A DNA stretch of 63,805 nucleotides, counting the filler, from Sluysia triapertura (taxonomy: Eukaryota): assembly GCA_046118255.1 (NCBI GenBank). It is 5 parts of 5 records of this genome, joined end to end, with 100 filler letters (N's around TTAATTAATTAA, not from the genome) between each part and the next. Parts side by side here need not be neighbours in the genome. Positions count along the whole stretch, not along the records: positions 1 to 11,751 come from JBJNIA010173587.1; 4 more parts are not named here. One strand, given 5' to 3'. The translations under genes were made by a program, and so were the position numbers. Under the pieces are notes generated by a model, which saw nothing but the letters and a program-made list of their open reading frames with translations, was not told where the DNA came from and did no database searches. Of the stretch, positions 9,420-10,060 are shown in pieces (within the stretch, counting starts at the first letter, position 1; each line of letters opens with the position of its first letter).

Positions 9420-10060
9420 ACATAAAATCTAAGTGACAAAATCTATTATTTCCTGTAATTGAATAATGGTTATCATCATCGTTATTGGAATCAATATTAG
9501 TGTACTTACATTTATTCATAAGGAACATCATGATCATTATTAATGCAATAATAAATAATTTATCTGCGATTACTAAAATAACTATTGACGGATCCTTCTT
9601 TAATGTATCTATAATTGTAGTTGGTTCTTTAATTCCTTATATAGCAAAATGAAGTTGTTAAACAATTTTAGCTTGATGTTGGATAAATATTATTATATGT
9701 TTGTCTTCCGATAGTAAATAATCTTTACAAATTGTTACTGGATATTTCGTATTTGGCAAAACATGTTTATGTAGTTCCCATATACTAAAATTAAATCTTG
9801 CTGGGTTGATGCATATATAATGTGCTTTATATTCTGTATCGAAATTATAAAAATCCAAGTATTTCGATTTGTAAAATTTCTGTAACGCGTCCCTAAATGA
9901 TATTAATGTTAGTAAGGTAAGTAGCATCATACTCGGTATCCTATTATTAATTTTTATAATTCTATTACAAGTGATTATGTAGTAAATAGTAAACAGCATA
10001 TAAATCAGGGTAAAGATTAAGAGCGCAACTATAAAAATATTTTGTATTTCTAACTTATTT
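9420..10060 (-). pseudogene. Degenerate homolog of the retroelement membrane polyprotein at 31.1-31.9 kb
   Basis: Translated segments ITCNR, KFYKSKYLDFYNFDTE, PARFNFSIW, PVTICKDYL and KKDPSIVILVIADKLFIIAL..MFLMNKCKY..NNDDD align in order with 31215-31790. Confidence 0.8.

Follow-up and report, generated by a model that had tools for sequence, protein, structure and literature searches.

Two stretches of the DNA analysed here (the window, 63,805 nucleotides and AT-rich, with a 1-kb GC of 0.16-0.40) resemble each other as membrane-protein sequences, and the question is what gene they represent and whose it was. They lie on separate contigs that are joined in the window by artificial 100-base spacers; we call them copy A and copy B. 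Both are dead remains of a transposon gene, with broken frames. We propose, at a probability of roughly 70%, that they are the decayed accessory membrane-protein region located 3' of the integrase in a Ty3/gypsy lineage, a region that is in frame in intact relatives.

Homology of the two copies

Copy A is composed of the following features:

9445-10011, minus strand: core aligned to copy B; a single frame with in-frame stops at 9660-9658 and 9639-9637
9967-10053, minus strand: first hydrophobic helix, then ITCNR and a short basic loop
9886-9939, minus strand: internal signal-peptide-like stretch, recognised by inspection and under the hydropathy cut-off set for helices
9594-9879, minus strand: ectodomain of about 96 codons with two Cys; no match to the fibronectin type III (FN3) profile described below
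9502-9591, minus strand: anchor helix, followed by NKCKY and NNDDD; homology stops at 9445

A frameshift-aware alignment of copy A (10011-9445, minus strand) with copy B (31189-31788, plus strand) matches 68 of 186 residues and scores 248, against a mean of 41 and a maximum of 61 for 110 real 1-kb tiles of the same window. With SEG filtering, tBLASTx recovers the match at E = 1e-8 over the whole window, where E-values are unreliable because noise segments are likewise given tiny sum-statistics values, and at 3e-12 in a focused search, in which none of 100 triplet shuffles did better than 0.002. The homology claimed in the original prediction is thus real, and the seven motif pairs that it quoted are all present, colinear and correctly placed.

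Conservation is seen at the protein level. Five gap-free blocks hold 139 codon pairs, of which 59 encode identical residues; identity at codon positions 1, 2 and 3 is 0.52, 0.72 and 0.44, and the aligned frame contains no stops while the shifted frames contain 26 and 35. The same pairs give pS 0.70, pN 0.37 and a dN/dS of about 0.25 (bootstrap upper bound 0.48), an approximate value, biased low by the choice of blocks from the protein alignment and by a dS close to saturation. As predicted earlier, this pattern indicates a membrane-protein gene under purifying selection while the lineages of A and B diverged. At the nucleotide level the two are 56% identical, copy A being a fragment of a diverged family, and a sequon for N-glycosylation in the ectodomain is common to both.

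The shared block is a piece of a longer frame punctuated by membrane stretches, as had been suggested: it opens with a helix and a short loop, continues with a signal-like stretch and an ectodomain of about 96 codons, and closes with an anchor helix, followed in copy B by a PPAY tail. PPxY is absent from copy A, also in line with the original prediction. Its statement that each copy is followed by another signal-like stretch needs amending: such stretches exist (9441-9385 and 31882-31950) but are not homologous to each other (score 38 against a control maximum of 59), and with about 0.8 of them per kb in each frame they are common by chance in this DNA. No A/B homology was found upstream or downstream of the aligned core (scores 38-59, inside the control range), nor is there a third copy of the membrane protein within the window. 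Copy A's own element is not visible because its contig continues upstream for only 1.7 kb, in which there is no pol, protease or flank homology.

Searches for relatives of the membrane protein returned none of 427 candidates by word index, none among 1.84 billion representatives with an HMMER profile, five pattern matches in viral contigs of which none was confirmed, and, by tBLASTx against 90 loci, one low-complexity match only. A look-up of sequencing runs listed a single holder and no RNA holder. The predicted fold of copy A, made from a four-row alignment, is unusable (pLDDT 50). What survives of the supposed conserved family is therefore a pair of homologous copies, both of them dead transposon-gene copies in one assembly, with no relative found elsewhere in these searches. 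A flatworm host would be compatible with these findings.

Copy B and its Ty3/gypsy element

Copy B follows a reverse transcriptase (RT), RNase H (RH) and integrase (IN), in that order and all of gypsy type. The membrane protein is not a host gene family, as copy B belongs to a Ty3/gypsy element, whose parts are:

27610-28374, plus strand: Ty3/gypsy reverse transcriptase, broken (Pfam); homology to relatives ends at about 27.6 kb
28376-28735, plus strand: RNase H, broken and partly deleted (Pfam)
28738-30040, plus strand: integrase with zinc finger, core and C-terminal part; the core shares 64-72% identity with 14 clade members
30129-30473, plus strand: retropepsin-like protease 3' of the integrase, DTGA at 30207; 51 bits against the clade protease profile, Pfam E 7e-5 (under the curated cut-off), colinear with metagenomic locus L001
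30461-30619, plus strand: proline-rich linker
30754-31134, plus strand: ORF whose N-terminus holds a signal-like helix; it also contains a domain with CxxC and has no significant relative
31189-31788, plus strand: copy B aligned core; frame changes near 31.23, 31.39-31.42, 31.54 and 31.60 kb
31624-31728, plus strand: copy B anchor helix
31789-31980, plus strand: copy B proline-rich tail, PPAY at 31822
31959-32650, plus strand: more coding-looking pieces 3' of copy B; the one piece scanned has no Pfam match

No gag, protease or env was found upstream of the RT, where homology ends at 27.6 kb, and no LTR pair was found for the element; we read these missing parts as truncation. The env of this element cannot be seen because everything 5' of the RT is lost. 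The ORF at 30754-31134 is probably the preceding part of copy B's membrane frame, and the pieces at 31959-32650 may belong to one more additional ORF of this element. Neither frame end carries a PDZ-type S/T-x-V/I/L motif: copy A has none, and in copy B a T-S-L lies internally at 31885; both copies are decayed.

Two candidate identities for the ORF at 30754 were rejected. Its Atlas look-alikes (0.85) suggested an interleukin-like protein, with recognition below threshold and too weak, and its by-eye likeness to the CxxC repeat of the relative P0012 was equalled by 395 of 500 shuffles. A search with the post-integrase protease yielded no longer relatives (0 of 54).

The post-integrase slot in related elements

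An integrase search gave 2078 matches, and the best 120 of these were compared: 14 metagenomic polyproteins (P0002-P0015) at 64-72% integrase identity and E <= 4e-45, and 106 others beginning at 1e-34. In a tree of 46 rows, comprising the top 44 matches and two window rows, the window integrase and the 14 polyproteins form one branch with support 96/96. Among the best 120 of 2078, a helix of transmembrane strength follows the integrase in the same frame in 9 of 14 clade members and 1 of 106 others, and a C-terminal S/T-x-V/I/L, which we take to be a class I PDZ-binding motif, ends 7 of 14 and 4 of 106, respectively, although related sequences of this kind are not independent counts. Signal peptides in the clade and the window were judged from hydropathy and by eye. 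The five clade members without a post-integrase helix comprise P0003, with a signal-like stretch and repeats and no anchor, and four more that end without an anchor; some may have been shortened by contig ends. P0003 is labelled a bacterial MAG protein by its source though its pol is of gypsy type, and is probably eukaryotic contamination of the bin.

The one clade protein of 15 that reaches far enough 5' to show env is P0122, a cluster-mate of P0009. Its 3735 residues form one frame in the order capsid, zinc knuckles, gB-type fusion glycoprotein (PF24664, a viral fusion glycoprotein match at E 1e-91), two proteases, RT, RH, IN and membrane protein. In P0008, residues 45-240 form a signal, FN3-like domain and anchor, not gB, directly before the protease, so that such a unit flanks pol on both sides. 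P0015 fills the same slot (residues 1054-1349) with a non-FN3, short cysteine-rich ectodomain and a PPSY tail, with no match to the window's protein. Proteases also occur as tandem pairs, before the RT in P0005 and P0122 and after the integrase in P0004. Pfam finds no BIR, MATH or BCL2 domain in the clade proteins.

A metagenome scan, of which 80 of 535 matches were kept, yielded a single locus at clade level among those 80, L001, with 59% identity; the others did not exceed 44%. The loci L002 and L030, examined in detail, have no post-integrase membrane region. At 3-7109, L001 encodes in one frame protease, RT, RH, IN, protease, ankyrin repeats, a signal, three repeats and an anchor. Two further ORFs follow at 7268-8743 and 9043-10374; the latter encodes an exonuclease of the RNase T family (E 1.5e-11). 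The window's element shares with the clade both the post-integrase slot and the layout of signal-like stretch, ectodomain, anchor and tail. Its own frame is broken, and for this reason in-frame fusion to pol in the window would be a feature read from the relatives.

What fills the slot can be assigned for most relatives. We built a repeat profile from 21 units of nine clade proteins, picked by motif and by eye. Held-out scores were 22-27 bits for P0006, P0008, P0009, P0011 and P0012; P0007 scored 19, while P0003, P0005 and P0014 stayed at 6-12. One repeat unit is predicted to be a beta-sandwich (pLDDT 96.5), and the top Foldseek matches of the model are FN3 domains (E 6e-4 to 9e-4, TM 0.60-0.66); the sequence profile matched mostly FN3 proteins among PDB chains, and an Atlas feature search agrees (0.89, lead level). 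On these models, the post-integrase ectodomains of most relatives are predicted FN3 repeats. The FN3 profile matches neither copy A, copy B nor the ORF at 30754, and pairwise and profile-profile tests of the window ectodomains against the relatives' repeat were not significant; a likeness of the copy A ectodomain to the CxxC repeat of P0012 was set aside, 164 of 500 shuffles having scored as high. Because they miss the profile, the window ectodomains are tied to the FN3 proteins by position and layout only, and the window's ectodomain would be a domain either unrelated to FN3 repeats or diverged from them beyond recognition.

A proposed accessory surface protein and its alternatives

We propose that the intact element would be translated as one long polyprotein in which an internal signal sequence 3' of the integrase directs re-entry into the ER. 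A surface protein with a single membrane pass could then be released by signal peptidase. The integrase may be cut free of the signal by the element's protease, which in some members is a duplicate encoded directly behind the integrase. The likely job of the surface protein would be to position or help the exit or transfer of particles at the plasma membrane by means of its tail. PPxY is found in the tails of copy B and P0015 and a PDZ-type end in seven relatives, and such motifs have roles in budding-site choice. Adhesion, receptor contact, and budding-site choice via a PPxY or PDZ-type tail are candidate accessory roles. The ectodomain appears to be the variable part, with FN3 repeats in most relatives and another, or unrecognisably diverged, domain in the window.

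A different reading, which we consider unlikely, takes the region for the envelope or fusogen of the element, located after pol where env usually lies; it would be an Env or a small cell-fusion protein of the FAST-like kind. A location 3' of the integrase, together with the signal and anchor helices, the sequon and the PPxY tail, would suit such a protein, and the rotifer transmembrane ORF3s of 210-230 aa have been proposed to be env-like in the available text of PMC5408684. Against this, the ectodomain spans only about 96 codons, the window's membrane region has no Pfam fusion-protein match, and full-length P0122 carries a separate gB-type Env upstream. The FAST-like version faces the further difficulty that sORF2/FAST-like proteins, as the accessible part of PMC11952523 describes them, have 63-107 aa and N-terminal myristoylation, whereas here there is an internal signal and a larger ectodomain. 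Because the single full-length relative has its gB-type Env upstream of pol, the post-integrase protein is by analogy probably an accessory glycoprotein rather than the fusogen.

It is also very unlikely that 30.1-32.6 kb is a second, nested or tandem element that follows the integrase by chance. The window's post-integrase protease scores 138 with the pre-RT protease of P0009, 120 with that of P0008 and 58-89 with post-integrase ones, and copy A is found without pol; both facts would fit a separate element. However, the end of the integrase and the protease align in the same order with L001 and are similarly spaced, GC is alike in pol (0.325) and the extra region (0.321) and above that of the flanks (0.24-0.26), and four of the 14 clade members (P0004, P0012, P0013 and P0014) carry a protease 3' of the integrase in the same order in one open frame. 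We take the closeness to pre-RT proteases to suggest that the protease module was duplicated repeatedly. We see just as little probability in copy A being a gene retained by the host through domestication or capture, or else a recent pseudogene, that resembles copy B through host-element exchange: it keeps one frame over 244 codons with two stops only and lacks transposon flanks, while copy B is frameshifted, but both stops fall within the part aligned to copy B, the frame, open from 10125, has no ATG ahead of the first helix, homology ends abruptly, and the 1.84 billion representatives hold no relative.

The accessory-protein reading can be set beside known systems. GAG-ENV-POL errantiviruses with an HSV/gB-type Env were reportedly described by Sacco et al. 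in 2022. The gag-env-pol order with a gB-type env occurs in nematode, bryozoan and flatworm elements (Chary et al., PMC13524379) and in planarian Burro (PMC6431247), and P0122, with its Ty3/gypsy pol and its gag, gB-type env and pol in that order, is alike. These errantiviruses differ in that the available passages of PMC13524379 mention no second, post-integrase membrane protein, and its main text uses the words 'fibronectin' and 'accessory' zero times. The giant gypsy elements Burro and GYPSM1 of planarians, compared by description only, resemble the clade in having a single very long polyprotein with env in frame between gag and pol, and added domains that include ankyrin repeats, which P0014 also has; Burro carries a dUTPase-like region between protease and RT. 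Unlike the clade, neither is given a post-integrase membrane protein or a second protease in the available portion of PMC6431247, the source of these descriptions.

Among bdelloid rotifer elements, Vesta and Juno have short transmembrane ORF3s of obscure origin and DEDDy exonucleases 3' of pol, comparable to the exonuclease ORF of L001. According to the accessible text of PMC5408684 these are separate ORFs, whereas the relatives described here are in frame with pol and have mostly FN3 repeats. The sORF2/FAST-like protein of insect MDG1-group elements is likewise a small transmembrane accessory protein, tied to cell-to-cell transfer; it differs, in the part of PMC11952523 available, in its 63-107 aa, myristoylation motif and separate ORF, as against at least 186 aligned codons and at least two helices. 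No report of an in-frame post-integrase FN3 membrane protein was found in the literature searched, although the layout may be recorded in Repbase, Sacco et al. 2022, subscription papers, figures or bioRxiv supplements. A gypsy lineage with a second surface protein besides Env, mostly with FN3 repeats and a PDZ-type tail, is apparently undescribed.

Herpesvirus gB-type fusogens rely on partner glycoproteins for receptor binding. For most elements the target-cell mechanism is elusive, according to the available text of PMC13524379. Post-integrase surface proteins are thus concrete candidates for the means by which gB-bearing retrotransposons find target cells; the window copies are transposon debris, yet they point to a lineage with an extra surface protein. 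More speculatively, and with considerable doubt, we can picture that this gypsy lineage built a two-glycoprotein system for entry or transfer. A gB-type fusogen before pol would work with a captured FN3 adhesion-type protein after the integrase, whose PDZ or PPxY tails could dock at cell junctions; duplicated proteases would cut the one polyprotein, and the ectodomain may have been swapped between families, the window's orphan being a further type.

Several other features of the window stand apart from the two copies. The spacers (11752-11851, 24742-24841, 39584-39683 and 52575-52674) each have 44 N on either side of a 12-mer that carries stops in every frame, and distances across them are meaningless. 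A second, unrelated decayed Ty3/gypsy pol with a protease trace, RT, RH and IN lies at 49959-52241 on the plus strand; its integrase is about 34% identical to its matches and falls outside the clade. Just upstream on the same strand, at 48356-49633, is a 425-codon open frame consisting mostly of about 25 tandem copies of a 30-bp repeat. On the minus strand, 13200-17770 holds a series of coding-looking frames of 96-279 codons with GC up to 0.33 and no Pfam match, one with a Cys pattern that is BIR-like by eye only, and 55675-56134 holds a Gag-like remnant whose zinc knuckle matches P0089 (E 0.002). Two sets of repeats complete the picture: a direct repeat at 36732-37403 and 38903-39578, about 70% identical and spaced 2.17 kb apart, and a dispersed repeat of about 350 bp, present as three copies on three contigs (6253-6674, 12435-12814 and 59843-60184) that are 65-75% identical.
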